Shown here piece by piece: positions 728 through 25,200 of a stretch of 32,000 nucleotides of DNA; position 1 is the stretch's first letter; each line of letters opens with the position of its first letter. The DNA is taken from positions 90,001 through 122,000 of the forward strand of contig NZ_FUWK01000004.1 of NCBI RefSeq assembly GCF_900167395.1, given 5' to 3'. The DNA comes from Nitrosomonas europaea. Lineage in GTDB: Bacteria; Pseudomonadota; Gammaproteobacteria; Burkholderiales; Nitrosomonadaceae. Under the pieces are notes generated by a model. The model worked only from the letters and a program-made list of their open reading frames with translations. It was not told the DNA's origin and ran no database searches. The position numbers and the translations under genes were made by a program.

Positions 728-1254
728 ATCTCTCGGCATGCCTCGATTGATGATCAGATTGCTTTCTGATAGACTCCGCCCCTTAAAATTTTCGGTACAT
801 TTATCCGGAAAGTGGAGACAGCACGATATGAATAAATATTATTGCTGAATACACACTCCGCCGGACAGTCCGCAGTACCCACAGCAACAAAGCTTAATAA
901 GCGAGCACCAACGCCATTGAGGAATAAATTTTCTGATCGGGAGTTAGGATAGCTCATATCCTTATAATTTTATATTTGATTGGCATCAAAAATTTCTGTG
1001 ACTATCCTGATGTCTTTTATATAACAAAATACAATATGTAATTAATTTAATATTCTTTTGAATTATAAAAATAATTGCTATCCTTGCATACTCTTATTTA
1101 GAGAGTGATGTAACGCAAAACTAAAACAGACGCAAACGGTTTTTTTAATTGATTTGTCCATACCTACAAAATATTCAGGATATGTTAGTTACCCGCTGGC
1201 TATCCTATTTCTACGTATTTCTACGTGTGAAAAACTTCCAAAATATAGAATAAA

Positions 1255-3090: not shown

Positions 3091-3098
3091 GAATATAA

Positions 3099-4820: not shown

Positions 4821-4885
4821 GGAGCTTCTGCAGAACTACTTGCCAGCGATACTCTTTCCCTGATCCTGACAGCCTCTTATCAATA

Positions 4886-4921
4886 CCTGATGATCATCCA
4901 CCAGTCGAGATGATCATCAGG
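4886..4921. terminator. Candidate bidirectional terminator hairpin between convergent cysI and the transglutaminase-like gene
   Basis: Perfect 13-bp stem: CCTGATGATCATC (4886-4898) pairs with GATGATCATCAGG (4909-4921), with a 10-nt loop. It is followed by TTATATT on the plus strand. It sits in the 112-bp gap between two convergent stop codons. Confidence 0.5.
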
Positions 4922-4932
4922 TTATATTCGGA

Positions 4933-6045
4933 TTACAGCTTTGCGCCGGTCCCCACCAGTACTGCTGAGGTAATTTTGTAGGAGAAAGATTCTGGTTCCA
5001 GACTATCCTGCAGTCGCCCGTCAATTTCTGCATAGGGGTAACCGAAGAATGGCAGCTTGCTGATGGCGGCGCTTACCTTGGTGGTACCGAGGTCAACATT
5101 CTCTCTTTCATTGAACGCCACCCAGTTCATCTCCCAGGAACCAAACAGCTTTTCCCTCAGCTGACTGATCGAATCATGGTTGTGTGATAACGATTCTGCC
5201 GCCATAACCCTGGCTACATCGGATGGATTTACCGGCACCCAACCCAACCCGGAAAGATAAAACTCTGCCTGACAATGCTGGGAAGTGCTGATGTCACCCG
5301 ACTTACCCAGATTTTTGTTCAATGCCGAATCACCGATACGGATGCCATACTGGATTCTGGCGGGGATGCCGGAAGCACGTGCCAGACCTACAAAGAGTGC
5401 ATGAATATCCCCGCATTTTCCACTGAGATTTTCCTTCCTGGAAAGCAGACTTCGAAGATCTCCACTGCCCTGCCCACGCCCATTGATATCATAGGCCACG
5501 TTATTGATTACCCAATCATAAATGGCACGCGCCTGCTGCAAAGGAGTATGTGCATTGGCCGGGCTGGTCACAGAGCGCGCCATTTTTTTCACGACATCAT
5601 CCAATGGAATATGCTTGGTGGATTGTAAATAGCGCTGTATATTCTGGGGAATTGAAATTTTGGCAGGCGCCCGGTAGGAATGCAGATCAACAGTACGGTC
5701 AGCAGTTTTGACAATACTGCTTACCCTGACCGTACGCTCCTCCCCCTTTTGCCAGAGAGCAAAAAATACCTGTGACTGAGTACCCGGCAGCATATAAAAA
5801 GCTGAAGCCGTAGCTTTTCCGCTCCAGTTATTTCCCTGAGTGAACTGATAAACGGTATCACTTGCGTCCGGCAGCGGCAGCCACAGTTTTGCGACCTTAC
5901 CCGATGCAGGCAGAGTAACCTGGTACGTTAATTGATAGCTGCGCCATTTCTGGTTTGGGGGCAAAGATGCACGCGCAACAGCCGGAAATAAAGCAGCAGC
6001 TGCAGCACTCGACCCCACCAGCTTGAAAAAACTCCTGCGTTTCAT
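4933..6045 (-). CDS. Tat-exported transglutaminase-like (Cys-His-Asp core) protein
   Basis: I placed the start at the ATG at 6045 because AGGAG lies 5 nt upstream; the ORF track starts 5 codons earlier. The N-terminus MKRRSFFKLVGSSAAAAALFPAVARA-S has a twin-arginine motif and an AxA cleavage site. The transglutaminase core is GKCGDIHALFVGLARASGIPAR .. HCQAEFYL .. WVPVNPSD. Confidence 0.75.
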   Translation of the reverse strand: MKRRSFFKLVGSSAAAAALFPAVARASLPPNQKWRSYQLTYQVTLPASGKVAKLWLPLPDASDTVYQFTQGNNWSGKATASAFYMLPGTQSQVFFALWQKGEERTVRVSSIVKTADRTVDLHSYRAPAKISIPQNIQRYLQSTKHIPLDDVVKKMARSVTSPANAHTPLQQARAIYDWVINNVAYDINGRGQGSGDLRSLLSRKENLSGKCGDIHALFVGLARASGIPARIQYGIRIGDSALNKNLGKSGDISTSQHCQAEFYLSGLGWVPVNPSDVARVMAAESLSHNHDSISQLREKLFGSWEMNWVAFNERENVDLGTTKVSAAISKLPFFGYPYAEIDGRLQDSLEPESFSYKITSAVLVGTGAKL

Positions 6046-6123
6046 ACAACTCCTCATCAATGATAGTATAGAACCCGATAAATTTATCGCTACCGGCCAA
6101 CCCGGTCAATTCTCAACAGCGCC

Positions 6124-6798
6124 ATGCCAGACAATTCATTTCAGCTTTCTGCAATCGATATTACAACCGGATCAAATCCGGAATATACCATTTTATGGAT
6201 GCACGGGCTGGGAGCCGATGGCAATGATTTCGTACCTGTTGTACAAGCGCTCGATTTACCGGAAATCCCGATCCGATTTCTATTTCCACACGCTCCCCAG
6301 CAGCCTGTCACCATCAATAGCGGATACATCATGCGAGCCTGGTACGACATCCAACATACTGATTTCGTCGAACAGGAAGATGAAACCGGGATACGCAGAT
6401 CACAGCACGCAATCGTAGAGTTGATCGAACGTGAAGATCGACGCGGCATCCCGCCGGATCACCTCATCCTGGCCGGATTCTCACAAGGTGCCGCCATGGC
6501 ACTGCATACGGGATTGCGCCATCCGGACAGGCTGGCTGGCATCATCGCCTTGTCAGGTTATCTCCCACTTGCTCATAAGATTGAACGTGAAGCACATATC
6601 ACCAACAGGATAACCCCCATATTCATGGCTCATGGCAACGATGACCCCATCGTCCCGATTGAATTGGCACATGCCTCACTGCAACAATTACGTGAATACT
6701 ACTACCCGGTAACCTGGCATGAATACCCAATGGAACATACGGTATGTGATCAGGAGCTGGTCGATATTTCCCGCTGGTTGAAAACCATCCTGAAATAA
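6124..6798 (+). CDS. Alpha/beta hydrolase, phospholipase/carboxylesterase family
   Basis: 224 aa. Contains HGLGADGNDF, the nucleophile elbow GFSQGAAMAL, and later AHGNDDPIVP and EYPMEHTV (Ser-Asp-His triad pattern). Confidence 0.8.
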   Translation: MPDNSFQLSAIDITTGSNPEYTILWMHGLGADGNDFVPVVQALDLPEIPIRFLFPHAPQQPVTINSGYIMRAWYDIQHTDFVEQEDETGIRRSQHAIVELIEREDRRGIPPDHLILAGFSQGAAMALHTGLRHPDRLAGIIALSGYLPLAHKIEREAHITNRITPIFMAHGNDDPIVPIELAHASLQQLREYYYPVTWHEYPMEHTVCDQELVDISRWLKTILK

Positions 6799-6813
6799 GA
6801 ACAGATTCAGACA

Positions 6814-7506
6814 ATGACTCATGACAATACCCACTATTCACATCGTACCGGCTGGTTACGGGCCGCAGTACTGGGCGCCAATGATGGAATCGTTTCAACC
6901 GCCAGCCTGATTATCGGGGTGGCCTCTGCTCACGCTGCTGCAGATGACATTCTCCTTGCAGGGGTGGCCGGTGTCGTTGCTGGCGCCATGTCGATGGCCG
7001 CAGGAGAGTATGTTTCCGTAAGCTCGCAATCAGATACAGAAAAAGCAGATGTCGCTCTCGAACAGTACCATCTCGATCGGGATATCGACTTCGAGCTGCA
7101 GGAGCTCACAGATATCTATATGAAAAGAGGATTGCAGCCCGAACTGGCAGCCCAAGTTGCCCGGGAGCTCATGGCTCATGATGCACTCGATGCTCATCTC
7201 AGGGACGAACTGGGTCTGCACGAGCGAGTCAACGCAAAACCCGTCCAGGCTGCCTTCACTTCTGCTGGTATGTTCATCCTCGGTGCATCGATGCCTCTCG
7301 CAGCAACCATCGCCGCACCTGCAACAACCCATATCATTCCAGTCGTGGCAATCTCCTCCCTGCTTTCGCTGACTGCTCTGGGAACATTTGCAGCCTATCT
7401 CGGAAAAGCAAATATGTTGACAGGCGCTGCGCGCGTAGCTTTCTGGGGAGCGCTCGCCATGGCATTCACCGCACTTACCGGCACCCTGTTCGGAATCATT
7501 GCCTGA
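6814..7506 (+). CDS. VIT1/CCC1-family membrane protein (putative Fe/Mn transporter)
   Basis: 230 aa. N-terminal WLRAAVLGANDGIVSTASLIIGV, a central acidic cytoplasmic helix region, and hydrophobic C-terminal helices. This is the typical VIT-family layout. Confidence 0.75.
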   Translation: MTHDNTHYSHRTGWLRAAVLGANDGIVSTASLIIGVASAHAAADDILLAGVAGVVAGAMSMAAGEYVSVSSQSDTEKADVALEQYHLDRDIDFELQELTDIYMKRGLQPELAAQVARELMAHDALDAHLRDELGLHERVNAKPVQAAFTSAGMFILGASMPLAATIAAPATTHIIPVVAISSLLSLTALGTFAAYLGKANMLTGAARVAFWGALAMAFTALTGTLFGIIA

Positions 7507-7561
7507 ACATAATTCAATAGCAGAGAACACCGACAGTTTTTATCAAGATAAGGAGCATCAT

Positions 7562-8014
7562 TTGGATCTGATTTTATGGCGTCACGCCGAAGCGGAAGAT
7601 GGCATTCCCGATGCCACCCGCAAGCTGACCGAAAAAGGTTTGAAACAGGCACAAAAAATGGCCCGCTGGCTTGAGCCCAAATTACCAAAAGATACGCGCA
7701 TCATCGTCAGTCCGGCTACACGTACACAGCAAACCGTCTCGGCACTGACCCACCATTTTGAAACCAGCGAGCAGGTAGGAACGAGCGCTACCCCGCACAG
7801 AGTACTCAATACAATTGCCTGGCCGGAAGCAGAAGGAACGGTGCTGGTAGTGGGGCACCAGCCAACTCTTGGCAAAATTGCCTCTCTCTTGCTGAAAGGA
7901 GATGAAAGTGGTTTCTCTGTACGCAAAGGTTCGATCTGGTGGTTCAGCAGCAAGCAAAAGGATGAACGGGAAAGCATCATCCTGCGCGCAGTGATGACAC
8001 CCGAGATATTGTAA
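7562..8014 (+). CDS. sixA: Phosphohistidine phosphatase SixA (histidine phosphatase superfamily)
   Basis: The RHAEAE (RHG-type) motif lies near the N-terminus, followed by VSPATRTQQT and VVGHQP. I chose the TTG at 7562 as the start because AGGAG (7551-7555) lies 6 nt upstream and this gives ~150 aa, as in E. coli SixA. The ORF-track ATG at 7499 would overlap the VIT gene and add 21 aa. Confidence 0.7.
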   Translation: MDLILWRHAEAEDGIPDATRKLTEKGLKQAQKMARWLEPKLPKDTRIIVSPATRTQQTVSALTHHFETSEQVGTSATPHRVLNTIAWPEAEGTVLVVGHQPTLGKIASLLLKGDESGFSVRKGSIWWFSSKQKDERESIILRAVMTPEIL

Positions 8015-8133
8015 AGACCGGATCATTTCTTCCAAATAACATGGAAAAACGACCACTGACACCGATCTGGTGACATTGATTCATCAGTATCCTTGTTTTT
8101 CCCGAACCAGATCAAACCCCAAATACTGCTCCC

Positions 8134-9084
8134 ATGAAAATACTGCCTTCCCTGTTTTCTCCCGCAGGTAAAAACTCAAAATTATCCATCGTCATTTACC
8201 ATCGCGTTCTGCCGGAACCGGATCTGCTGACGGGAGAAGGTGGAATCGCACAGTTCGAAAAGGGATTGAGCTATCTGACCAACAACTTCAATATCCTGCC
8301 TTTATCTGAAGCAGTCAATAAGTTACGCAGCGGCACCCTGCCCGGCCGTGCCGCCTGCATCACGTTTGATGACGGCTATGCGGACAATGCTGAAATTGCA
8401 CTTCCTATTCTGCAGAAACATGGCGTAACTGCCACATTCTTCATCGCTTCCGGCTTTCTCGATGGGGGAAGAATGTGGAACGATACCGTCATCGAATCGG
8501 TACGCCGGGCCAAAGGAGACAAACTGGATTTGAATGCAATCGGTTTGGGAAACCACGCTATCGCCACACTTGAACAAAGGCGGGAAACCCTGAATCTGCT
8601 GATCAACAAACTGAAATACCTGCCCCATGAAGCACGAGCCTCCCAAGTGGACAAACTCAGTACCATTATCGCCGCCGACCTGCCGGACAATCTCATGATG
8701 ATCTCGGCGCAAGTTCGGCAATTGCACGATGCAGGAATGGAAATAGGCGGGCATACCCTCACCCACCCGATTCTCGCCAGCATCGATGATGCCGCCGCAC
8801 GCACGGAAATAGCAGAAGGCAAGGCAAAACTCGAAGCTATTATCGATACACCCCTGCGCCTGTTTGCCTACCCGAATGGCAAACCGGGAAAAGATTACCT
8901 GTCTGCACACGTAAAAATGATCAAGGATGCCGGGTTTGAAGCGGCTGTTTCAACTGCATGGGGCGCTGCCCGACAGGATAGCGACATGTTCCAGCTACCA
9001 CGCTTCACCCCCTGGGATCAAAGCGAATGGCGCTATGTACTGCGCATGGTACGAAATATGAGACAAAGAATTCAGACTGTGTAA
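8134..9084 (+). CDS. Polysaccharide deacetylase (NodB-homology domain) family protein
   Basis: 316 aa. Contains ITFDDGYADN (NodB motif 1), GHTLTHP (His motif) and FAYPNGK. Confidence 0.8.
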   Translation: MKILPSLFSPAGKNSKLSIVIYHRVLPEPDLLTGEGGIAQFEKGLSYLTNNFNILPLSEAVNKLRSGTLPGRAACITFDDGYADNAEIALPILQKHGVTATFFIASGFLDGGRMWNDTVIESVRRAKGDKLDLNAIGLGNHAIATLEQRRETLNLLINKLKYLPHEARASQVDKLSTIIAADLPDNLMMISAQVRQLHDAGMEIGGHTLTHPILASIDDAAARTEIAEGKAKLEAIIDTPLRLFAYPNGKPGKDYLSAHVKMIKDAGFEAAVSTAWGAARQDSDMFQLPRFTPWDQSEWRYVLRMVRNMRQRIQTV

Positions 9085-9211
9085 CGTTTATCGGGTCTTC
9101 CCCACGCCCGTGGAAATACTTCTCCGATCCGATATTCGCTAAAGTCACCAGAATAGAAATTGATGGATTAATTCGGTTCAATTCAATGTCTGGATAAACA
9201 AAACTCTCGTT

Positions 9212-9796
9212 ATGATCATTCGTAATAACTCTAGTTTTTACAGAATAGATCCCTTGAAATCGCCCATAAAAGCCAATCCACTCAGAAATCCGGGTGAATC
9301 CCTGAATCACCGTCTTCAGAATATTTTCCTGGATGGTATCGTTCCGTATTTCATAGCAGCATTATGTTTTGTATTAATAGCCGCGTGGGAATGGATACGG
9401 TGGTATACACAAACATCACCAAACCCGGTTTTATTTACAGTGATGGCTATACCTTGTATCGCAACACTTCTATGGAAAATTTATAAAGGGCGCAAAGAAG
9501 TCAAGCGTATCAAGCTAGGTTTGGCCGGAGAACTTGCGGTAGGGCAATTTCTTGAACGATTAAGAGCCCAAGGAAGTCATATTTTTCACGATATACCGGG
9601 AAAAGGATTTAATCTCGACCATGTCGTCATCCACTCATCCGGTATCTATGTCATAGAAACAAAAACGCTTTCCAAGCCGGATCGTGGTGAATCAAAACTG
9701 GTTTACGATGGAAATCATATATTGAAGAATAGCACTGCGCTGGACAGGAACCCAATCACTCAAGTACGTGCAAACAGCAGGTGGCTCAGAGAATAA
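9212..9796 (+). CDS. Membrane-anchored NERD (nuclease-related, PD-(D/E)xK) domain protein, probably 3'-truncated
   Basis: Two predicted TM helices (IVPYFIAALCFVLIAAWEWI and VLFTVMAIPCIATLLWKIY) precede GELAVGQFLERL..FNLDHVVIHSSGIYVIETKT (D..ExK core). The ORF ends ..NPITQVRANSRWLRE-stop, only 2 nt before the first CRISPR repeat. Confidence 0.65.
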   Translation: MIIRNNSSFYRIDPLKSPIKANPLRNPGESLNHRLQNIFLDGIVPYFIAALCFVLIAAWEWIRWYTQTSPNPVLFTVMAIPCIATLLWKIYKGRKEVKRIKLGLAGELAVGQFLERLRAQGSHIFHDIPGKGFNLDHVVIHSSGIYVIETKTLSKPDRGESKLVYDGNHILKNSTALDRNPITQVRANSRWLRE

Positions 9797-9798
9797 CT

Positions 9799-10412
9799 GT
9801 TTCAATCCTCGCCCGGTCTGGTGACCGGGCGCTACTAATTAAATGATGGCTTTAATAGGTCGACTACCGGGTTTCAATCCTCGCCCGGTCTGGTGACCGG
9901 GCGCTACATTACCGGCACAGACGCTGATACCTGAATACATCATGTTTCAATCCTCGCCCGGTCTGGTGACCGGGCGCTACTTGACACGGGCCAGTAATGC
10001 AGCCTATTACGATGTGTTTCAATCCTCGCCCGGTCTGGTGACCGGGCGCTACTTAGATTAGGGTCAGTAATTCTTAGCGATTTAAAGTTTCAATCCTCGC
10101 CCGGTCTGGTGACCGGGCGCTACCTGGCAATTTCCTGATGGAGATCAAGAGAGGTAGAGTTTCAATCCTCGCCCGGTCTGGTGACCGGGCGCTACGCCTG
10201 TGACCCTGACAAATCTATTACTGATGCCACTGTTTCAATCCTCGCCCGGTCTGGTGACCGGGCGCTACTAGGAGCCTCGGTTTTCTCGGATTGTAACATC
10301 AATGTTTCAATCCTCGCCCGGTCTGGTGACCGGGCGCTACAAGCTAGTCATCTCGTTATGGATCAAGGATTGCCAGTTTCAATCCTCGCCCGGTCTGGTG
10401 ACCGGGCGCTAC
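9799..10412 (-). CRISPR. CRISPR array, 9 repeats and 8 spacers, repeat consistent with type I-C
   Basis: The 37-nt repeat GTTTCAATCCTCGCCCGGTCTGGTGACCGGGCGCTAC (plus strand) starts at 9799, 9871, 9944, 10016, 10087, 10159, 10232, 10304 and 10376. All nine copies are identical. Spacers are 34-36 nt and all differ. Orientation is taken from the cas2-proximal leader; the minus-strand repeat ends in ATTGAAAC. Confidence 0.97.
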
Positions 10413-10592
10413 AGTACAACTATAACTGCTTGATACATCTTTAAAATTCGGGCAATTTGCGCGAACGTAAAGATTTTCTCGGCTGCCGGTAACGAACAGT
10501 AGAAAAAGGAAGCTATTTTCCTGTTTGTTACCATACAGTTAGATGTAGCGCGAACTGGCCGGTATTGAGCCGGTGCTACAGGTTCGCGTTTA
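10413..10592 (-). promoter_or_regulatory. CRISPR leader (cas2 stop to first repeat)
   Basis: A 180-bp non-coding, relatively AT-rich stretch between the cas2 stop codon (10593-10595) and the leader-proximal repeat (ending at 10412). I could not place -35/-10 boxes with confidence. Confidence 0.55.
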
Positions 10593-10883
10593 TCAGATAG
10601 TGAGAGGTCCTTCAAAATCAATTGCCTTAAAATTGCCATACTCTTTTACATGGAGCTCCGCCGGTTCGGTCAGGCGATATAGCCGCAGATTATCTTCCTG
10701 TTCGTCTATTTCAGACAGTAAACGACGCTCCAGCTCCTCATACTGCATTAAATTGATACGACATTCAAATACAGATTTTTGCACACGTTGCCCGATACTT
10801 TCACATAATTTTGCAACACGGCGCAATCGCTTGCGACCTGCTCTGGTTTCCGTTGAAACATCGTAAGTAACAATGATCAGCAT
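10593..10883 (-). CDS. cas2: CRISPR-associated endoribonuclease Cas2
   Basis: 96 aa. [54 protein letters not shown] closely follows the type I-C Cas2 pattern (compare Bacillus halodurans Cas2 as I recall it). It starts 2 nt after the cas1 stop. Confidence 0.9.
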
Positions 10884-10885
10884 GA

Positions 10886-11453
10886 TTATCTAACCAAGAA
10901 AGGAAGATAACCATCCATTTCACCGCGTATGACGCGAGCCATAAATCTTGCCTGAAGCTGCGGCAGCAAGCCAATAGGTACTTTGGTTTCAAGCAGAGGA
11001 TGAGTAATCTCTTCCTGCTTGCGTTCCTGATAGGCAACGACTACAGTTTTTCTGGCTTTATCCTCAAGATGGACAGCACCACCTTCACGTACCAGTAAAT
11101 CCTGATCGGTGATTTGTCCACGGTTGATCAGGGTCAGTGCCAACCGATCAGCCATGAACGAGCGGAATTCTTCCATTAGATCCAGCGCGAGGGCTGCTCT
11201 TCCGGGGCGCACTGCATGCAAGAAACCTATTTGCGGATCCAGTCCGACACTTTCCAGAGCAGAACGACAGTCATTCATCACCAGAGAATAAATAAATGAA
11301 AGCATAGCGTTGAAGCGATCACGTGGCGGACGGCGCGTTCGCCCGTCCATCGTAAAGAATTCACGTATATCTTTGCGTACAAGATATGGCAGAGCGGAAA
11401 AATAGGTTTTGGCCGCATCTCCCTCAATTCCGCGCACCTGATCAAGGTCTTTA
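10886..11453 (-). pseudogene. cas1: cas1 remnant (C-terminal ~188 aa), 5' part removed at the transposon IR
   Basis: The authentic sequence begins at KDLDQVRGIEGDAAKTYF and continues GRTRRPPRDRFNAMLSFIYSL..GLDPQIGFLHAVRPGRAALALDLMEEFR..YQERKQEEITHPLL..YLPFLVR, which is the I-C type Cas1 C-terminal domain. The first 20 codons of track ORF 10886..11512 are IR or merR-antisense sequence. About 150 N-terminal residues are missing. Confidence 0.88.
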
Positions 11454-11491
11454 GGGGTCGTCTCAGAAAACGGAAAATAAAGCACGCTAAG
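11454..11491. repeat. Transposon terminal inverted repeat, mer end
   Basis: GGGGTCGTCTCAGAAAACGGAAAATAAAGCACGCTAAG. The merR stop codon (11487-11489) lies inside it, as in Tn21/Tn501. Confidence 0.95.
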
Positions 11492-11912
11492 GCATAGCCG
11501 GGCTTGCGTCACCCTGTAGCGACGCGATCAACGGGCAGGAAACATTTCCCTGCCGTAGATGGCAGGCGGACACAAGTTCGGACAGCACCGACTCCATACG
11601 TGCCAAGTCGGCCATCTTCTCGCGCACGTCCTTGAGCTTGTGTTCCGCCAGGCTGCTTGCTTCTTCGCAGTGAGTGCCATCGTCCAGCCGCAGCAGCTCT
11701 GCGATCTCGTCCAAACTAAATCCCAGCCGCTGGGCCGATTTCACAAACCGTACCCGCGTCACATCCGCCTCGCCATACCGGCGAATGCTGCCATAGGGCT
11801 TGTCCGGCTCAGGCAGCAATCCCTTGCGCTGATAAAACCGGATGGTCTCTACATTGACCCCTGCCGCCCTGGCAAAAGCGCCAATGGTCAGATTCTCCAA
11901 AATAGTTTGCAT
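11487..11912 (-). CDS. merR: Hg(II)-responsive transcriptional regulator MerR
   Basis: 141 aa. Contains [72 protein letters not shown] and the Hg-binding cysteines C..C(x8)C (HCEEA .. [13 protein letters not shown]). Divergent from merT. Confidence 0.96.
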
Positions 11913-11917
11913 ATCGC

Positions 11918-11948
11918 TTGACTCCGTACATGACTACGGAAGTAAGGT
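11918..11948 (+). promoter_or_regulatory. merOP: PmerT promoter with MerR operator dyad
   Basis: -35 TTGACT (11918-11923), a 19-nt spacer, and -10 TAAGGT (11943-11948). The spacer contains the dyad TCCGTAC-ATGA-CTACGGA (6 of 7 positions symmetric). The overlong 19-bp spacer is the MerR-family hallmark. Confidence 0.85.
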
Positions 11949-11983
11949 TACGCTATCCATTCCAAATTCAAAAGGACAAAAGC

Positions 11984-12334
11984 ATGTCGGAACCACAAAA
12001 CGGGCGCGGCGCGCTCTTCGCCGGCGGGCTGGCCGCCATCCTCGCCTCTACCTGTTGCCTTGGGCCGCTAGTCCTGGTCGCTCTGGGATTCAGTGGCGCG
12101 TGGATCGGCAACCTGACGATATTGGAGCCGTATCGGCCGATCTTCATCGGCGCGGCGTTGGTTGCGCTGTTCTTTGCCTGGCGGCGCATCTACCGCCCGG
12201 CAGAAGCCTGCAAGCCGGGCGAGGTGTGCGCGATTCCACACGTGCATACCACCTACAAGCTCATTTTCTGGATCGTGGCCGTGCTGGTCCTGGTTGCGCT
12301 TGGTTTTCCCTACGTCATGCCATTTTTCTACTAA
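11984..12334 (+). CDS. merT: Mercuric ion transport protein MerT
   Basis: 116 aa from the internal ATG at 11984: MSEPQNGRGALFAGGLAAILASTCCLGPLVLVALGF.. with the CC pair in TM1. The ORF-track upstream extension runs through the operator and was rejected. Confidence 0.95.
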   Translation: MSEPQNGRGALFAGGLAAILASTCCLGPLVLVALGFSGAWIGNLTILEPYRPIFIGAALVALFFAWRRIYRPAEACKPGEVCAIPHVHTTYKLIFWIVAVLVLVALGFPYVMPFFY

Positions 12335-12347
12335 TCAGGAGTTCACC

Positions 12348-12623
12348 ATGAAAAAACTGTTTGCCTCCCTCGCTCTCGTCGCCGTCGTTGCCCCCGTGTG
12401 GGCCGCCACCCAAACGGTCACGCTGTCCGTGCCTGGCATGACCTGCGCTGCCTGTCCGATCACGGTCAAAAAAGCCATCTCGAAAGTCGAGGGTGTAAGC
12501 AAGACCGACGTGAGCTTCGACAAGCGCGAGGCCGTCGTCACCTTCGACGACACCAAGACCAACGTCCAGAAGTTGACCAAGGCGACCGAGGGCGCGGGCT
12601 ATCCGTCCAGCGTCAAACGCTGA
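12348..12623 (+). CDS. merP: Periplasmic mercuric ion-binding protein MerP
   Basis: 91 aa: signal peptide MKKLFASLALVAVVAPVWA, then an HMA fold with GMTCAACP. Confidence 0.95.
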   Translation: MKKLFASLALVAVVAPVWAATQTVTLSVPGMTCAACPITVKKAISKVEGVSKTDVSFDKREAVVTFDDTKTNVQKLTKATEGAGYPSSVKR

Positions 12624-12651
12624 TCCGCTGAACCTAACTCGGGAGCGACAC

Positions 12652-14798
<2,147 letters not shown>

Positions 14799-14815
14799 GG
14801 AAAAGGAGGTGTTCG

Positions 14816-15181
14816 ATGAACGCCTACACGGTGTCCCGACTGGCTGACGATGCCGGCGTGAGTGTGCATGTCGTGCGCGACTACATCGTGCGTGGATTGT
14901 TGCGGCCGGTCGCATGCACCACGGGCGGCTACGGCCTGTTCGACGCGGCAGCCTTGCAACGCCTGTGCTTCGTGCGGGCCGCCTTTGACGCGGGCATCGG
15001 CCTGGGCGCGCTGGCGCGGCTGTGTCGGGCACTGGATGCTGCGGACGGCGACGGCGCGGCTGCGCAGCTTGCCGTGCTGCATCAACTCGTAGAACGGCGG
15101 CGCGAGGCCCTGGCCAGCCTCGAAATGCAGTTGGCCGCCATGCCAATCGAGTCGGCACGGCAAACGGAGAGTTTGCCATGA
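14816..15181 (+). CDS. merD: MerD co-regulator (MerR-like)
   Basis: 121 aa: [31 protein letters not shown].., a helix-turn-helix related to MerR. Position after merA is canonical. Confidence 0.9.
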
Positions 15182-15414
15182 ACAGCCCCGAGCGCTTGCC
15201 AGCCGAGACGCGCAAGCCGGTCACCGGCTACCTGTGGGGCGCGCTGGCCGTGCTGACCTGCCCCTGCCATCTGCCGATTCTCGCCGCTGTGCTGGCCGGT
15301 ACGACCGCCGGCGCTTTCATTGGGGAGCATTGGGGTGTTGCTGCCCTCGCGCTGACCGGGTTATTTGTCCTGTCCGTGGCGCGGCTGCTTCGAGCGTTCA
15401 AGGGAAGATCATGA
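15178..15414 (+). CDS. merE: MerE small membrane mercury transporter
   Basis: 78 aa: [41 protein letters not shown].. with the CPC motif. Its ATGA start overlaps the merD stop. Confidence 0.88.
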
Positions 15415-16397
15415 CCGCTTCCCGACCGGTTGTATGGACGGCGACACAATTGGCGCAGGCGGTTGTGCTCGGACAGCTTGAGCTGCATTACCAGCCGATT
15501 GTCGATCTGCGCAGTGACCAGATTGCCGGCGCGGAAGCACTGTTACGCTGGCGGCACCCGAGTCTCGGCTTGTTACCGCCGGGCCAGTTCCTACCCGTGG
15601 CGGAATCGTCCGGCCTGATGCCGGAGATCGGTGCATGGGTGCTGCGCGAAGCCTGCCAGCAGATGCACGAGTGGCTACCGGTGCAATGGCGGCCGTTCCG
15701 CCTGGCCGTCAATGTATCCGCACGCCAGGTCGGGCCAGGTTTCGATGACCAGGTGCAACAGGCATTGGCGGCGGCAGGCTTGCTCGCCGAGTATCTGGAA
15801 ATCGAGCTGACCGAATCGGCCGCCTTCGGCGATCCGGCAATTTTTCCTCTCCTGGATGCGTTGCGCGCCATCGGCGTGCGCTTCGCTGCCGACGATTTCG
15901 GGACGGGCTATTCCTGCCTGCAACACCTGAAATGCTGCCCGATCACCACGCTCAAGATCGACCAATCGTTCGTCGCGGGAATCGTGGATGACACACGCGA
16001 CCAGACCATCGTCCGGGCGGTGATCCAACTCGCGCACGGCCTTGGCATGGAAGTGGTAGCCGAGGGAGTGGAAACGCCGGCCAGTCTCACGCAGTTGCGG
16101 CTAGCGGACTGCGACGCAGTGCAGGGCTTCCTGTTCGCCAAGCCGATGCCGGCGGCGGCATTCGCCGCCTTCGTTAAGCGATGGAGGGGTGTCACCATGA
16201 ACGTCAACGAACCGACCACCAGTTGTTGCGTGTGCTGCAAGGAAATTCCGCTCGATGCTGCCTTCACCCCGGAAGGCTCGGAATACGTCGAACACTTTTG
16301 TGGACTCGATTGTTATGAACGTTTTCAGGCCCGAGCTAAAGCCGTAGCCGAACCAGTTACTACACCTGCCGCTGGCGGCCCAACGCCGTCAGGTTGA
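15411..16397 (+). CDS. Urf2-type EAL-domain protein (predicted c-di-GMP phosphodiesterase) with a Cys-rich C-terminal tail
   Basis: 328 aa from the ATG at 15411, with ATGA overlap on the merE stop. EAL-domain landmarks are all present: [53 protein letters not shown]. The last 66 aa contain CCVCC-X20-C-X3-C. Confidence 0.85.
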
Positions 16398-16526
16398 AGC
16401 ATACCCTATCCTGATGTCAGGAGAAGCCACCCAGCAACGTCAGAATAGAGCCAATTTTTGTATTTCTTGACACCTGCGGCGAAAGGTCATAAATTTCTTC
16501 CTGACACTTTCGTGTTTAGAGGCACC
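16398..16526. promoter_or_regulatory. res (resolution) region and tnpR promoter
   Basis: This non-coding stretch lies directly upstream of tnpR, where Tn21-subgroup res sites lie. Repeated GTCAG/CTGAC-type half-sites are present: TGTCAG (16415-16420), CGTCAGAAT (16438-16446) facing TTCTTGACA (16464-16472), and GGTCAT..CCTGACA (16485-16506). I could not delimit subsites I-III. Confidence 0.6.
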
Positions 16527-17087
16527 ATGCAGGGTCAACGCATCGGCTATGTCCGGGTCAGCAGCTTCGACCAGAACCCGGAACGGCAACTGGAGCATGT
16601 CGAAGTCGGCAGGGTATTCACCGACAAGGCGTCGGGAAAAGACACCCAGCGGCCTGAACTCGATTCGTTGCTGGCCTTCGTGCGCGAAGGCGACACGGTG
16701 GTGGTGCACAGCATGGATCGCCTGGCGCGCAACCTCGATGATTTGCGCCGCCTGGTACAAAAGCTGACCAAACGCGGCGTGCGCATCGAGTTCGTCAAGG
16801 AGAGTTTGACCTTCACCGGCGAGGATTCGCCGATGGCGAACCTGATGCTGTCGGTGATGGGTGCGTTCGCCGAATTCGAGCGGGCCTTGATCCGCGAGCG
16901 GCAGCGCGAAGGCATCGCGCTCGCCAAGCAGCGCGGAGTCTACCGGGGCCGTAAGAAAGCACTGTCGCCCGAACAGGTCGCCGAACTGCGGCAGCGTGCC
17001 GCAGCCGGCGAACAGAAAGCGAAGCTGGCACGTGAATTCGGTGTCAGCCGGGAGACCCTGTATCAATACTTGAGATTGGATCAATAG
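16527..17087 (+). CDS. tnpR: Tn3-family serine resolvase TnpR
   Basis: 186 aa from the ATG at 16527: [85 protein letters not shown]. This shows the catalytic Ser and a C-terminal HTH. Confidence 0.96.
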
Positions 17088-17089
17088 CG

Positions 17090-20059
17090 ATGCCTCGTCG
17101 TTCCATACTGTCCGCCGCCGAGCGGGAAAGCCTGCTGGCGTTGCCGGACACCAAGGACGACCTGATTCGACATTACACGTTCAGCGATACTGACCTTGCC
17201 ATCATCCGGCAGCGGCGCGGGCCTGCCAACCGGCTGGGCTTCGCCGTGCAGCTTTGCTACCTGCGCTTTCCCGGCATTATCCTTGGCGTCGATCAGCCGC
17301 CGTTCCCGCCCTTACTGAAACTGGTCGCCAACCAACTCAAGGTCGGCATCGAAAGCTGGGACGACTACGGGCAGCGAGAGCAGACCCGGCGCGAGCACCT
17401 GGTCGAGCTGCAAAACGCGTTCGGCTTCCAGCCCTTCACGATGAGCCACTATCGGCAGGCTGTGCATACGCTGACTGAGCGAGCCATGCAGACCGACAAG
17501 GGCATCGTGCTGGCCGATGCCTTGATCGAACATTTGCGGCGACAGTCCATCATTCTGCCCGCGCTCAATGCCATCGAGCGCGCCAGCTCCGAGGCCATCA
17601 CCCGCGCCAACCGACGAATCTACGAAGCCCTGTCCGAGCCGTTGTCGAACGGGCACCGGCATGGCCTCGACGATCTTCTAAAACGCCGCGACAACAGCAA
17701 GACGACTTGGCTGGCCTGGCTGCGGCAGTCGCCCGCCAAGCCCAATTCTCGGCACATGCTCGAACACATCGAGCGTCTCAAAGCCTGGCAGGCGCTCGAC
17801 CTGCCGCCCGGCATCGAGCGGCTGGTTCACCAGAATCGGTTGCTCAAGATCGCCCGCGAGGGCGGCCAGATGACGCCCGCCGACCTGGCCAAGTTCGAGC
17901 CGCAACGGCGCTACGCCACCCTGGTGGCGCTGGCCATCGAAGGCATGGCCACCGTCACTGACGAAATCATCGACCTGCACGACCGTATCCTCGGGAAGCT
18001 GTTCAACGCAGCCAAAAACAAGCATCAGCAGCAGTTCCAGGCGTCCGGCAAAGCCATCAACGCCAAGGTGCGCCTGTACGGCCGCATCGGCCAGGTGCTG
18101 ATCGACGCCAAGCAATCGGGCGGCGACCCGTTCGCCGCCATCGAGGCCGTCATGTCCTGGGACGCCTTCGCCGAAAGCGTCACCGAGGCGCAAAAGCTCG
18201 CGCAGCCCGATGACTTCGATTTCCTGCACCGTATCGGCGAGAGCTACGCCACCTTGCGCCGCTACGCGCCGGAATTTTTGGATGTGCTCAAGCTGCGGGC
18301 AGCGCCCGCCGCCAAGGACGTGCTCGATGCCATCGAGGTGCTGCGCGGCATGAACACCGACAACGCCCGCAAGGTGCCCGCTGATGCTCCGACCGATTTC
18401 ATCAAGCCGCGCTGGCAGAAGTTGGTGATGACCGACGCCGGCATCGACCGGCGCTACTACGAGCTGTGCGCACTGTCGGAACTCAAGAACTCGCTGCGCT
18501 CGGGCGACATCTGGGTGCAGGGATCACGCCAGTTCAAGGACTTCGAGGACTACCTGGTGCCGCCCGCGAAGTTCGCCAGCCTCAAGCAGTCCAGCGAACT
18601 GCCGCTGGCCGTGGCCACCGACTGTGACCAGTACCTAGACGACCGGCTAACGCTGCTGGAGGCGCAACTTGCCACGGTCAATCGCATGGCAGCGGCGAAC
18701 GACCTGCCGGATGCGATCATCACCGAGTCGGGCCTGAAGATTATGCCGCTGGATGCAGCCGTGCCCGAGACTGCGCAGGCGCTGATCGACCAGACCGCGA
18801 TGATCCTGCCACACGTCAAGATCACCGAACTGCTGCTGGAGGTAGATGAATGGACGGGCTTCACTCGTCACTTCGCGCACCTGAAATCGGGCGATCTGGC
18901 CAAGGATAAGAACCTGCTGCTGACGACGATCCTGGCCGACGCGATTAACCTCGGCCTGACCAAGATGGCCGAATCCTGCCCCGGCACGACCTACGCCAAG
19001 CTGGCTTGGCTACAAGCCTGGCATATCCGCGACGAAACCTACTCGACGGCGCTGGCCGAGCTGGTCAATGCACAGTTTCGGCACCCGTTCGCCGAGCACT
19101 GGGGCGATGGCACCACGTCATCGTCGGACGGCCAGAACTTCCGCACTGGCAGCAAGGCCGAGAGTACGGGCCACATCAACCCGAAATACGGCAGCAGCCC
19201 AGGGCGGACGTTCTACACCTACATCTCCGACCAGTACGCGCCGTTCCACACTAAGGTCGTGAACGTCGGCGTGCGCGACTCGACCTACGTGCTCGATGGC
19301 CTGCTGTACCACGAGTCCGACCTGCGCATCGAGGAGCACTACACCGACACGGCAGGCTTCACCGATCATGTCTTCGCCTTAATGCACCTGCTGGGCTTCC
19401 GCTTTGCGCCGCGCATCCGCGACCTGGGTGATACCAAGCTGTTCGTCCCAAAGGGTGAAGCCAGTTACGACGCGCTCAAACCGATGATTAGCAGCGACAA
19501 GCTGAACATCAAGGCGATTCGTGCCCACTGGGACGAAATCCTGCGGCTGGCCACCTCAATCAAGCAGGGTACGGTGACAGCCTCGCTGATGCTCAGGAAG
19601 CTCGGCAGTTACCCACGTCAGAACGGCCTGGCCGTGGCCCTGCGCGAGTTGGGCCGCATCGAGCGCACGCTGTTCATTCTGGACTGGCTGCAAAGCGTGG
19701 AACTGCGCCGACGTGTCCACGCCGGACTCAATAAGGGCGAAGCGCGCAATGCGCTGGCCCGCGCCGTGTTTTTCAACCGGCTGGGTGAAATCCGCGACCG
19801 CAGTTTCGAGCAGCAGCGCTACCGGGCCAGCGGCCTCAACCTGGTGACAGCGGCTGTCGTGCTGTGGAACACGGTCTATCTGGAACGGGCGGCGCATGCG
19901 CTACGTGGCAACGGTCATGCCGTCGATGACGCGCTGTTGCAGTACCTGTCACCGCTGGGCTGGGAGCACATCAACCTGACCGGTGATTACCTGTGGCGCA
20001 GCAGCGCCAAGATCGGAGAGGGCAAGTTCAGGCCGCTACGACCGCTACAACCGGCTTAG
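17090..20059 (+). CDS. tnpA: Tn3-family (Tn21-subgroup) DDE transposase TnpA
   Basis: 989 aa, starting 2 nt after tnpR. Its stop codon lies inside the right IR (20057-20059), as in Tn21/Tn501. Confidence 0.96.
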
Positions 20060-20092
20060 CGTGCTTTATTTTCCGTTTTCTGAGATGACCCC
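20055..20092. repeat. Transposon terminal inverted repeat, tnpA end
   Basis: CTTAGCGTGCTTTATTTTCCGTTTTCTGAGATGACCCC is the reverse complement of the left IR with one mismatch (GTCATC versus GTCGTC). Confidence 0.95.
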
Positions 20093-22098
20093 TTAATGAG
20101 CTGGAATTTGTCCGCGGCAGTGCGGAAGCTGAACTCGGCACGGCGAGCTTCGACCCGGTTGTGCATGTCCAGCAGGCCGATGATGTTTTCTTCATCTAAG
20201 CTGTTTAGACTGGCGTAGTAGTGACGAAAGTAGGCTTCGAAACGCTCACGCGTGAGTGGATCGCCTTCGGTCAGCCGCATGATTTCCTGCCCACTCTGTT
20301 GAGCTTTGCGCAGTAGTCCAGGGACAGCTGGCTTGGGCGGCACGAACACGACAACCTTGCCCATACCCGGCAGCATACCTTCGCGGTTACAACGCCCGGC
20401 AGCCTGCGCCACGGCATCCAGTCCAGCCAGTGCACGATAAACCACTGGAAAATCTATATCTACTCCGGCTTCTACCAGCTGAGTACTGATAACACGAGTG
20501 GGGATGCCATCTTTCAAACGTTGTTTGATGTCCGCGATTACCTCACTGCGATGCTGGCCGCACATCAGGGCGGAAAGATGGATGGTGTCCCTGGGCATCA
20601 ACGCATGCAGCGCGCGGCAATCAGTACGGGAATTCACTATGCACAACACGGAATCATATTGCTGCAATTCTTCAGCAATGGATTCCCAAGTACGAGGTGC
20701 GTTGAAATCCCGTGGCAGTTCGGCTTCGACACGTTTCAAATCGGCATACAACCCATCCGGGTCGTCCATCAGCTCTTGCACACCCCTGAGACCGGAAAAC
20801 TTAGGGCGCGGCGAGAAGGCGGGTTGCGTCGCGGTAGAAAGTACGAAACTCACTTTATAGTTTTGCGACAAATCTTGCATGACATGCAGGATAGGGGCGA
20901 GGAACTCCGGCGGCAGCAGTTGCGCTTCGTCCAGAACGACTACGCTGTTCACGATGTTGTGCAGCTTGCGGCAGCGGCTGGTACGGGCAGCAAACAGTGA
21001 TTCGAAGAACTGTACGTTGGTGGTGACGATGATGGGGGCATCCCAGTTTTCCGTGGCGAGCCGCGAGCGTGAATCTTCCTTGTCGGGATCGAGATTGCTG
21101 TGGTGTTCAATGACATTTTCATCCCCGAAAATCTTGCGGAAAATTTCCGCCGTCTGTTCGAGGATGCTGGTGTAGGGGATGACATAAATCACGCGCTGTT
21201 TGCCATGATGCATGGCGTGATTCAGTGCAAAAGCCGTGCTGGAAAGGGTTTTGCCGCCACCGGTGGGCACGGTGAGCGAGAACAGGCCGGGCGGCAACGT
21301 GGCTTTCTCACAGCATTGGCGTAGCACTTCAGTACGGATACGGTTGACCGGAGAATCTGTTGCATTTGCTGTTTTGTCATTCATGTACTGGTCGAATGCG
21401 GACAGCAATTCATTCAACGCCGGATAACCCGCGCGCAAATCTTTCCTGCGCTCGTCCATAAAGGCTTCCGTATCCAGAAAATCAGCATCCACCAGACAGG
21501 AAAACAACATCCTGATCCAGAGCGCGAACGAACCATCTTGCGGTGGAGATGAAGTGGGACATGGTTGGTTGAACAGTCCGGTTGTCGGTGCATTCTGCAA
21601 CGCTTCTTGCCGATAGCCTTTTTGCTTACCATCTTCTATCCGCTGAAACAATGAAGCGGGTTCGCCATTCCAGTCTGGCAACCCAGCGTGATGCCCGGCA
21701 ATCAGATAGGCGATGATGCGTCCCGGCGGGCCCAGTTCTTCAATGGCATGGATGGCGCCTGCAGTGGAATGATCCACCCGACCAGGCGCACCTTCGATGT
21801 GTGCTTCGGCATCGTAGCCGCTGACGGACTTGATATATTTCTGGAATTTCTCGCGGAATTTGCCGATGTCGTGCCACAATCCGGACAAGCGTGCCCAGTC
21901 CTGACTATTAAAAACAGACGCAAATTCAGCCGCCAATACAGCAACAGCGAGCAAATGCTCTTCCAGAAAATGCTCGATCCATCTCCCATTCGGCAGCTGC
22001 CGCACATGCGCCAGATAAGTGGTATTGTTTTCAGCATTCACTTTCTCAGATCTCCGGGGTTGTTTCCTAGAAACAAGCTTTCCGATATTTTGCCGCAC
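20093..22098 (-). pseudogene. cas3: cas3 (N-terminal HD nuclease plus SF2 helicase), 3' end removed at the transposon IR
   Basis: HD-domain motifs are LWHDIGK, VDHSTAG and AGHHAGLPDW. Helicase motifs are TVPTGGGKTL (I), VVLDEAQ (II), STATQP (III) and AQAAGRCNREG (VI). Authentic sequence stops at ..FRTAADKFQLI, and the last ~11 codons plus the stop codon of track ORF 20056..22098 are IR sequence. The start is ambiguous: ATG at 22098 or GTG at 22041. Confidence 0.88.
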
Positions 22099-22262
22099 CC
22101 GCTACCCAACCTGATCAGGAAATAAGAGGAGAATTACTGGCTTTCTATGATGAATAGCTTTTTTGAATGTGGCCAGCTGGTGGAAACCGAAGCAAAACTC
22201 ATTGCTTCGTCAGTTGCATTCTGCTGCAATCCGGTATTTCAATGGGAAGCAACGTTATTCGG

Positions 22263-25200
22263 TCACTCCCGCACGCTTTCCCACAGTTTTTGCAGACGTT
22301 TCACTGAAACAGGCGCCGGGGTTTTCAGTTCCTGGCTGAACAGGGAAATGCGCAATTCCTCGATCTGCCAGCGGAATATTTCCATATTCGGATCTATTAC
22401 TCCGGCCTGGCGGTGCTTGTTCAGGCGCTGAATGTACTGATTCCACAATGTACTGATGATTTCTGTCTGTTCCTGATCACGTGCCGGATTCTTGTTGTAC
22501 TTATCGAGGCGCAGGATCATGCCTTTGAGATAACGGGGAAGGTGTTGCAGATATTGCCAGCGGGTCGTACTTAGAAATCCCGGATAAATCAGGTGGTGGA
22601 GTTGCTCCTCCATATCCTTTTTCAGGAAAACGGCTGATTTGTCCAGAACGGATAGTCGTTTTTTCAGTTCCTGGCAGGGTTGGGCGATGGTATGGATCAG
22701 CCCGGCTATCTCCTGTGAAACGGATCCCAGGCGTGTTCGGGCACGTGACGTCTGTGAATTGAATTCATCCTCGTTACGCGGTAAGGGATCATCACCGATC
22801 AGCGCCAGATCGATGATGGCCGAACGAATATCTTCCTTCAGTCTGTCCATTTCGATCAGGCTGCTCATGAGCAGAATCGCTTGTCGATCGACCGGCAGAT
22901 TTTTCTCCAGTTGTTTGATCCGGTCCTTGAGTGCCAGACACAATAAACGCAGCACCCCTCCACGCATACTGCGCTGCGCGCCTTCCTGCGTATCAAATAT
23001 ACGAACGGCAACGCTTTGTTCCTGATCAACCAGCGCCGGATAACCGGTCAGCAACTTGCCGGCTCGGCTGAAACGGGTTTCCACTGGTAATTCTCCGAAA
23101 TCCCATCGGGTAATGTCATCACGTTCAATGGAATCAGGCTCTGCGCCGGCGCCACGTGCAAACAACTGCTGTGCTGTCTGACCAAATTGTGCCTTCAGCT
23201 CGATCAGATCATGCCCCATGCCCAGCGTCATCCCGGCATCATCGATCACTTTCACATTCATCTGCAAATGTACCGGCAGCAACCTGCTATCCCAGGTATC
23301 CAGCGGTACTTTGATTCCAGTTTCGCTGCGGATGAATGCAGTGAGAGACTCAGCAAGCAACATGGCCTGATCCGGGCAACTATCCAGCCATTCCAGAAAC
23401 CGGGTAACGAATTGCGGTACCGGAATAGCGTGACGGCGCACCTGCTTGGGCAGCATTTTCACGTACCAGCCGATCTTTTCCCGAATGAGCCCCGGCACCA
23501 GCCGGTCGAAGTGAAACGGCATGATCTGATTGAGCAGCGGTAGCGGTACCGTAACGGTCACCCCATCCAGTGGATGGCCAGGATCGAAACGGTAACTCAG
23601 GGGCAATACGTGGCCGGCTGCTGTCAGGGTCTCGGGAAACTGTTCGGCAGCCGTTCCGTCTACTGCCTGACGTATCAATACTTCCCGCGTCAGATACAGG
23701 AGCTCGGGTTCAGTCTGTTCCGCCTGCTTACGCCATTTTTCAAACGCAGTGCCGCTATAGATACCCGCTGGAATACGTGCAGCATAGAATTCGAATATCT
23801 GCTGCTCATCGACCAGAATATCCTGCCGCCGCACTTTGCTTTCCAGCTCGCGGATTTCATCAATCAGTTGCTGGTTGTGCTGCAGGAAAGGTGCAGTGCT
23901 TTCATACTCCCCTGCCACCAGCGCCTGACGTATGAAAATTTCGCGTGCATGTGCCGGGTCGATCGGGCCATAGGCAATGCGCCGTTTGGGGACGATGGTC
24001 AGGCCATACAAAGTGATCCGCTCAAACGCCATCGCCTGCGCACGTTGCTTTTCCCAGTGCGGATCAAAATAGTGTCTTTTGCACAATTTACCAGCGATTC
24101 TTTCCAGCCAGGCCGGGTCGATTGCTGCCGCACAACGAGCATAAAGTTTGGTAGTTTCCGCCAGTTCAGCTGCCACCACCCATTTCGGTTGTTTTTTTCT
24201 CAGGGATGAACCAGGAAAAATCGAGAATTTGATGGCACGTGCCCCCTCATAAACCCCTTTCTCATCCGATTTGAAACCGATATTGCCTAGCAATCCGGAT
24301 AACAGTGCCCGATGGATTTCATCATAGCCGGCAGAAACCTGATTGGGGCGCAACCCCATCTCACTGATCAGTATATGCAACTGGCCGTGGATCTCGCGCC
24401 ACTCGCGCATTCTGCGATGGGAAATGAAATTTTTCTGGCATTGTTCGATCAGTTTTTTATTGGATTTTTTGTGTTTGAGCAGCTCATCATAGAAATCCCA
24501 TAGTTTGAGATAGCCCATGAAGTCAGAGCGATCATCACGGAACGGCTGGTGCGCCTGATCAGCCGCCTGCTGATGTTCGAACGGCCGATCACGCGGATCC
24601 TGCAGGCTGAGTGCAGCAGCGATGATCAGCACTTCGCTCAAACAATTTTCCTGTTTGGCCGCCATGATCATGCGGGCGATTCTCGGATCGGTTGGGAATC
24701 TTGCCAGTTGATGGCCGATTTGTGTCAGCCCCTTGCGCTCGTCAAGTGCGCCAAGCTCTGACAAAAGCTGATAACCATCCGCGATCATGCGCGGCGCAGG
24801 CGGCTGAATGAATGGAAATTGCTCGACATCCCCAATCTTGAGCGATTTCATACGCAGAATGACAGCGGCCAGCGAGGAACGCAGAATCTCGGGATCGGTA
24901 TATTCCGGGCGGGCATTGAAATCTTCTTCTGAATACAGCCTGAAACACACGCCGTTCATTACCCGTCCGCAACGCCCTGCGCGCTGGTTGGCCGATGCCT
25001 GGGAAATCTTCTCGACCAGAAGCTGCTCCACCTTGTTGCGGTAGCTGTAGCGGTTGATTCGCGCCAGCCCTGTATCGATCACATAACGGATACCGGGGAC
25101 TGTAAGTGAGGTTTCGGCAACATTGGTTGCCAGCACGATTCGCCGCTGCTGACCGGGAGCAAAAATACGCGCCTGTTCTGTATGAGATAACCGGGCAAAC

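Follow-up and report, generated by a model that had tools for sequence, protein, structure and literature searches.

The window analysed here is a 32,000-nucleotide stretch of the chromosome of Nitrosomonas europaea ATCC 19718 (AL954747.1, locus near 0.9 Mb), in which a complete mercury transposon lies between the remnants of two different cas genes of a type I-C CRISPR-Cas locus (CRISPR: clustered regularly interspaced short palindromic repeats); coordinates are in window numbering, except where a contig is named. The closest relative, used as the reference throughout, is L086, a 63-kb contig from run SRR23982699. The CRISPR-Cas features, the two ends of the transposon and the pentamers that flank it are as follows:

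9799-10412, minus strand: CRISPR array, 9 repeats of 37 nt (GTAGCGCCCGGTCACCAGACCGGGCGAGGATTGAAAC) and 8 spacers, with the leader-proximal end at 10412
10413-10592, minus strand: leader, 180 bp between cas2 and the first repeat, assigned by position only; identical in intact relatives
10593-10883, minus strand: cas2, intact, 96 amino acids (aa) (TIGR01573, PF09827)
10886-11453, minus strand: cas1 remnant, codons 157-344 of 344
11449-11453, plus strand: left flanking pentamer CTTTA, native cas1 sequence (TAAAG at L086 9431-9435)
11454-11491, plus strand: left 38-bp inverted repeat (IR), at the mer end of the transposon
20055-20092, plus strand: right 38-bp IR, at the tnpA end of the transposon
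20093-20097, plus strand: right flanking pentamer TTAAT, native cas3 sequence (ATTAA at L086 4743-4747)
20093-22041, minus strand: cas3 remnant, residues 1-650 of 747 identical to L086 Cas3

Exact-protein look-ups show that the Cas2 protein of the window is common to many close relatives with an intact operon; between hrpA and a NERD-domain gene, these carry cas3 (747 aa)-cas5c-cas8c-cas7-cas4-cas1 (344 aa)-cas2-array. This is exactly the ancestral order reconstructed in an earlier reading of the window from its sequence alone (the original prediction), namely cas3-cas5-cas8c-cas7-cas4-cas1-cas2-leader-array with the four genes from cas5 to cas4 missing, and the placement of both remnants, cas2 and the array on the minus strand holds as well. 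BLAST comparison with L086 gives 99.99% identity for window positions 16-9835 and 100% identity for positions 10376-11454 and 20091-24839; hrpA stands to the right of the transposon, beyond the cas3 remnant. The four middle genes of the relatives are assigned by NCBIfam models, all above cut-off, to Cas5c (TIGR01876), Cas8c/Csd1 (TIGR01863), Cas7/Csd2 (TIGR02589) and Cas4 (TIGR00372); the locus is thus of type I-C, and the Cas8c, Cas5c and Csd2 found at the same place in the relatives bear out the earlier assignment. In the window itself, the signature genes cas8c/csd1, cas5c and cas7/csd2 are absent, whereas the same locus in the relatives has all three; what is left is thus a type I-C remnant and no longer a type I-C system. 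Type I-G was also considered, since the 37-nt repeat ends ATTGAAAC, and was dropped: the Cas1 remnant scores best on the I-C model, and the N-terminal HD domain of Cas3, together with the Cas8c, Cas5c and Csd2 of the relatives, likewise speaks against it.

At the left junction, the cas1 remnant keeps 188 aa, starting KDLDQVRGIEG and identical to K157-R344 of L086 Cas1, in agreement with the ~188 C-terminal residues predicted to remain. It aligns with positions 153-339 of 340 of the type I-C Cas1c model TIGR03640 at 310.8 bits, below the 385-bit cut-off of that model because the protein is truncated. The annotated open reading frame (ORF) CAD84755.1 (10886-11512, minus strand, 208 aa) extends into the transposon, where it starts at a GTG, and its first 20 codons consist of the transposon IR and the end of merR; public annotation gives it as an ordinary Cas1 despite this transposon-derived start. 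At the right junction, the cas3 remnant keeps the N-terminal HD nuclease and the helicase through motif VI (TIGR01596, TIGR01587), and the C-terminal 97 aa are gone. Motif VI (QAAGRCNREG) occupies residues 546-555 and the break falls 95 aa beyond it, the distance originally proposed and here confirmed against the 747-aa Cas3 of L086; the called cas3 ORF continues into the IR, with 661 aa from an ATG or 680 aa from an upstream GTG at 22098. The possibility that the cas1 and cas3 ORFs are in fact full length, raised alongside the prediction, is answered by these alignments, in which both are truncated. All numerical values given in the prediction are correct.

Alignment with the intact-operon relatives maps both breakpoints and leaves 4,683 bp missing. 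BLAST of the window against L086 shows that the absent interval is L086 4748-9430, which runs from the 3' end of cas3 through cas5c, cas8c, cas7 and cas4 to the 5' end of cas1; 1-2 bases at each edge of the deletion are ambiguous, as the ends of the IRs match the native bases by chance. The native cas3 breakpoint in L086 reads ...CAGCTCATTAA before and GGAAGAAGG after the break, the native cas1 breakpoint ...CCTTATTC before and TAAAGACC after it. On both sides of the transposon, the complete 38-bp IRs directly abut native sequence. The flanks CTTTA (11449-11453) and TTAAT (20093-20097) do differ, as the prediction had noted, and neither duplicates the other; whether they are native at the two breakpoints had been left to be checked, and by comparison with L086 both are. 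TTAAT is A/T at 5/5 positions and CTTTA at 4/5, where only 1.9% of the pentamers in the intact operon are 5/5 A/T and 15.4% have at least 4/5. Targets of the Tn3 family are usually AT-rich.

The transposon between these flanks is complete (11454-20092, 8,639 bp, without an integron), with a G+C content of 63% against ~50% for the chromosome. Both IRs begin GGGG and agree with each other at 37 of 38 positions; no further copies of the IR are found elsewhere in the window. Its genes, with the positions of the mer genes taken from the gene calls of the identical locus L091 (offset +7089), are:

11487-11912, minus strand: merR (PF00376, PF09278), transcribed towards the cas1 remnant, cas2 and the array
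11984-15414, plus strand: mer operon merT-merP-merC-merA-merD-merE
11984-12334, plus strand: merT
12348-12623, plus strand: merP, with an HMA domain
12652-13074, plus strand: merC
13113-14798, plus strand: merA
14816-15181, plus strand: merD
15178-15414, plus strand: merE
15411-16397, plus strand: urf2-type gene for an EAL and DUF3330 protein
16398-16526: intergenic region 5' of tnpR, 129 bp, candidate location of res by position and family architecture only
16527-17087, plus strand: tnpR, serine resolvase, 186 aa, intact (PF00239, PF02796), co-directional with tnpA and directly upstream of it
17090-20059, plus strand: tnpA, Tn3-family DDE transposase, 989 aa, intact (PF13700, PF01526)

In elements of the Tn21 subgroup, res is located upstream of tnpR. 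With the Tn21 backbone, Tn501 and Tn4380 (the latter from Cupriavidus metallidurans pMOL30), the transposon shares 38-bp IRs starting GGGG, a length of ~8.6 kb without an integron, the gene order merR, merT, merP, merC, merA, merD, merE, urf2, tnpR, tnpA, and a 5-bp target duplication upon simple insertion; the mer cargo with a divergent merR, which the Tn21/Tn501 subgroup requires, is present. Annotated Tn21-family mercury transposons on plasmids align with it over its whole length, yet even the best of them reach no more than ~84-86% nucleotide identity, which makes it a complete, distinct member of the Tn21/Tn501 subgroup; no registered name was found for it. The ORF of the cas1 remnant lies directly downstream of merR on the same strand, and read-through from merR could extend transcription into this remnant, cas2 and the array.

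A second copy of the transposon, inverted relative to the first on the chromosome and ~770 kb away from it, has the 3' end of a multicopper-oxidase gene on one side and a LysR gene on the other. Three contigs show it:

L096 1243-9881: second copy, 1 mismatch to the window copy
L095 4365-13003: second copy, 7 mismatches to the window copy
L118, at the end of the contig: second copy

This copy has a perfect 5-bp duplication, AACTG, present on both sides in L095; the target duplication of the Tn3 family, absent at the window copy, is thus present at a near-identical one. The flanks of the second site are 100% identical to ATCC 19718, whose reference genome AL954747.1 has the site empty near 1.68 Mb, with a single AACTG (the empty site corresponds to L111 ~10994-11000). 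The check for a second copy that accompanied the original prediction therefore gives a divided answer: TnpA is recorded once only in AL954747.1, but a copy ~770 kb away exists in other ATCC 19718 DNA. Some of the assemblies with this copy come from ENA study PRJEB12287, others from JGI samples. PRJEB12287 is the shotgun sequencing of the Shakya/Podar mock community (PMC4787001), which contains N. europaea ATCC 19718 (PMC4712552); in its assemblies, contigs end at the transposon at both the cas site and the second site, which is the behaviour of an assembler at a two-copy repeat. A scan of metagenomes for the empty second site returned one contig, from a different strain (98.7% identical). Because the second copy sits in ATCC 19718 flanks and the site is empty in the reference, the transposon is still mobile in the type strain; this implies that it makes canonical 5-bp duplications and has moved within ATCC 19718 after the reference genome was made, or in a sub-line of ATCC 19718. 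It also shows the type-strain stocks to be structurally heterogeneous, and this mobility matters wherever ATCC 19718 serves as a reference or as a mock-community member.

What ties the deletion at the cas locus to the transposon is that the latter is complete, with its two IRs as its exact limits. IR-exact ends against two AT-rich pentamers read as the signature of transposase strand transfer at two targets rather than of an unrelated deletion, and the transposon, with tnpA, tnpR and both IRs intact, is predicted to be competent. The transposon machinery, or copies of the transposon, almost certainly made the deletion; a transposition-associated adjacent deletion, the core of the original prediction, is supported by the complete transposon, the exact IR ends and the native pentamers. 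As to the route, intramolecular replicative transposition is the probable one. The ancestor of ATCC 19718 would have had an ordinary type I-C operon beside hrpA (cas3-cas5c-cas8c-cas7-cas4-cas1-cas2-leader-array), which a Tn21-subgroup mercury transposon would have entered by normal replicative transposition, at ATTAA in cas3, at TAAAG in cas1, or somewhere between. Acting in the cis geometry, its own transposase would then have transferred both ends to another AT-rich pentamer of that chromosome, a few kb distant. Once the transposon had been replicated, one copy would have stayed on the chromosome, flanked by one old and one new pentamer, and the 4,683 bp separating the sites would have left with the other copy on a circle that had no origin and was lost. 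An insertion inside the deleted segment, followed by two one-sided events in succession, would give the identical product. An intermediate with an insertion at the cas3 site only is expected to show the junction GGTTTGGCCTTCTTCCTTAAT then GGGGTCGTCTCAGAAAACGG, one with an insertion at the cas1 site only TTTTCTGAGATGACCCC then CTTTAGAATAAGGTAAGTTTCTGATC. We infer both the order of events and the intramolecular route; the sequence by itself does not reveal the route.

The intramolecular route is favoured because nearby targets are the most accessible and only short, non-lethal deletions survive, and because, in a 2.8-Mb genome, a second independent insertion in the same orientation has a low prior probability of landing within 4.7 kb of the first. 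Precedents come from plasmids: intramolecular cis transposition of Tn1331-delta::IS26 in pAAC154-type plasmids produced adjacent deletions of 171 bp and 1,259 bp, with one duplication removed (He et al., 2016; PMC5142620), and the intramolecular inversions of Tn4401 are the trans counterpart (He et al., 2015; PMC4471558). The N. europaea locus resembles these cases in that the host DNA directly adjoining the two IRs of a complete transposon is not contiguous, the 5-bp duplication is either missing or does not match, a neighbouring gene is truncated, and the reading rests on a relative that keeps the deleted DNA. It differs from them in lying on a chromosome instead of a plasmid, in the extent of the loss (4.68 kb against 0.17-1.26 kb), in its mercury cargo and in the nature of the lost DNA, a CRISPR-Cas interference and adaptation module; in addition, the plasmid series includes an intermediate with matching duplications, whereas none is available for N. 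europaea. The event belongs to a well-described class, the Tn3-family adjacent deletion with mismatched duplications, and involves no new mechanism.

Several points weigh against the intramolecular route. The final sequence would be identical if two separate copies had been involved, and the window does not discriminate between the two. When TnpA and the remnants of Cas3 and Cas1 were looked up as exact proteins, no intermediate with the transposon at one site and a matching duplication came to light; these look-ups gave only the deletion configuration, contigs stopping at the transposon, the second site, and a hybrid scaffold, L093, described below. Target immunity, if present, should also disfavour an attack 4.7 kb from the transposon's own IRs, and two copies are able to coexist on the chromosome, as the one 770 kb away shows for some ATCC 19718 DNA. 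The original prediction had in fact invoked immunity as a reason to prefer the intramolecular route; this argument does not separate the routes, since DNA close to a resident IR is protected no matter which copy the attacking ends belong to, and an intramolecular attack 4.7 kb away is hindered to the same degree. Tn4401 and Tn1331-delta are natural exceptions to target immunity (PMC4471558, PMC5142620). Given that the same chromosome carries a second copy, immunity cannot be absolute in this host, at least over long distances.

An outcome identical to the observed sequence would also arise if two copies in the same orientation had inserted independently, one into cas3 at ATTAA and the other into cas1 at TAAAG, the later one perhaps from a plasmid or a sister chromosome, and had then been resolved, with TnpR at the res sites, or RecA on 8.6 kb of homology, deleting one copy together with 4.68 kb. 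For this, tnpR is intact, resolvase efficiently resolves directly repeated copies, and the second copy documented in ATCC 19718 DNA speaks against absolute immunity. However, a 2.8-Mb chromosome would have to be hit twice in the same orientation at sites no more than 4.7 kb apart, a distance over which immunity of the Tn3 family should be at its strongest, and no genome with either a single or both insertions was found in the look-ups; resolution of two copies is thus possible, if unlikely.

A simple insertion followed by an unrelated deletion (by replication slippage or illegitimate recombination) that happened to end at the IR, or the import of an already rearranged segment from another strain by homologous recombination, is highly improbable. 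Flanks identical to those of intact-operon strains would permit allelic replacement, but import would only transfer the same event to another cell. For an unrelated deletion, the end point would have to coincide with the outermost base of a complete 38-bp IR, and the sequence left behind would have to be an AT-rich pentamer typical of transposition targets; in addition, there is no extended microhomology at the junctions, where only 1-2 bases are common.

The chance that the structure is an assembly artefact, with the transposon misplaced or contigs mis-joined across the repeat, is practically nil: short-read assemblies of the lineage do break or chimerise at the transposon (L102, L104, L118, and scaffold L093 with N gaps), but the same structure is present in the finished 2003 genome AL954747.1, in CM135170.1, which was assembled separately, and in a 128-kb JGI contig; ENA contig L106 and JGI contig L099 separately cross the left and the right junction, and no ATCC 19718 Cas5c, Cas8c or Cas7 appears among the 90%-identity clusters of the relatives' proteins. 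The recurrence of both junctions in independent assemblies thus settles the worry about misassembly that had been attached to the prediction. The sole ATCC 19718 entry in the relatives' Cas clusters is the truncated Cas1 CAD84755.1; the search of the genome for the missing cas genes, run by cluster membership, found none elsewhere, and there is no sign that they have moved within the genome, since the relatives' Cas5c, Cas8c and Cas7 clusters have no ATCC 19718 members.

For the strain, the consequence is that the Cascade genes (for Cas8c, Cas7 and Cas5c) and Cas4 are gone, that Cas1 is without its N-terminal 156 aa and that Cas3 is without its C-terminal 97 aa. Cas5c is the pre-crRNA (precursor CRISPR RNA) nuclease in type I-C. 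Judged from this gene content, the remaining cas2 and 8-spacer array are very probably non-functional. The original prediction had described the net effect as excision of the effector with the array left behind; the genes are indeed gone and the array kept, but what was deleted may have been a module that no longer worked. In L086, cas8c carries a nonsense mutation at codon 97 (R97 to stop, CGA to TGA at L086 6006), which splits the gene into ORFs of 96 aa and 425 aa; in the next relative, L081, this codon is intact. The L086 stop may be an error of the reads or of the assembly; if it is real, the immediate ancestor may no longer have been capable of interference, in which case the deletion could have been neutral.

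None of the eight spacers has a match among 50,697 phage records and 72,556 plasmid records, in the transposon, in the rest of the window or in any fetched locus beyond the arrays themselves; nothing therefore indicates that the incoming transposon was a target of the system. The idea that the spacers were aimed at the transposon or its vector, which would imply selection for CRISPR loss, was dropped for want of any spacer match, and the notion that type I-C was lost under selection for keeping the transposon's vector is speculative, with no spacer evidence. No spacer is common to the array of the window and those of L083 (19 spacers), L088 (56), L089 (54) and L020 (20), strains with 90-97% identical flanks and an identical Cas2, which suggests that spacer turnover in the species was fast before the lineage lost adaptation. 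Five relatives whose cas genes are intact (L081, L082, L084, L086 and L090) have a single CRISPR repeat at 10472-10508, where similar strains have 8-56 spacers. Loss of the array in these five was considered and dropped: all are Logan short-read contigs, whereas NCBI, ENA and JGI assemblies have 8-56 spacers, and the single-repeat arrays are probably due to repeat collapse by the assembler, not to biological loss.

CRISPR-Cas loci inactivated by the insertion of insertion sequences or transposons in cas genes are known, as are cas-less orphan arrays. The N. europaea locus is like these in that cas genes are disrupted and the array persists as an orphan; it differs in that one transposon removed six gene segments, with base-defined breakpoints and a near-identical intact relative for comparison. 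Literature searches found nothing specific that describes this cas deletion event in N. europaea before. The deletion explains the odd locus of ATCC 19718, in which an orphan array of 8 spacers is accompanied by no more than cas2 and two cas fragments, and provides a base-exact chromosomal example, in a model ammonia oxidiser, of a Tn3-family transposon deleting a defence system. It may be useful as a teaching case and as a reference for the annotation of mismatched target duplications.

Further rearrangements involving the second copy are seen in single assemblies. The 58-kb scaffold L093 (the same as scaffold L110; JGI 3300014713) has the hybrid order array-cas2-cas1 remnant-transposon-AACTG-LysR-pirin. 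This linkage fits an inversion of ~770 kb, which either a flip between the two copies or one intramolecular trans transposition would give; L093 may equally be a chimera across the repeat, as it has N gaps and derives from short reads. If real, the inversion would span the region opposite the origin. That the transposon is perhaps still reshaping the type-strain chromosome in laboratory stocks, by the cis deletion of the cas module and a trans inversion of ~770 kb in one lineage, is a doubtful proposition, for which the odds are poor; if it were true, stocks of the reference strain would differ structurally from the reference genome.

In L095, six of the differences from the window copy fall within 35 bp (window 14761-14795, at the end of merA and upstream of merD) and another is at 16268; the cluster resembles a short tract of conversion or, alternatively, the mixing-in of another mer operon of that sample during assembly. 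At L095 ~13572, by comparison with L111 10403-10431, a 28-bp deletion splits the LysR gene beside the second site; it is absent from L093 and from the reference. At the CRISPR locus of two relatives, L084 and L090, a two-gene module (10643-11196) that is absent from the window lies between the array and the NERD gene; it encodes a 73-aa ribbon-helix-helix (RHH) protein and a 110-aa protein, and looks like a toxin-antitoxin pair.

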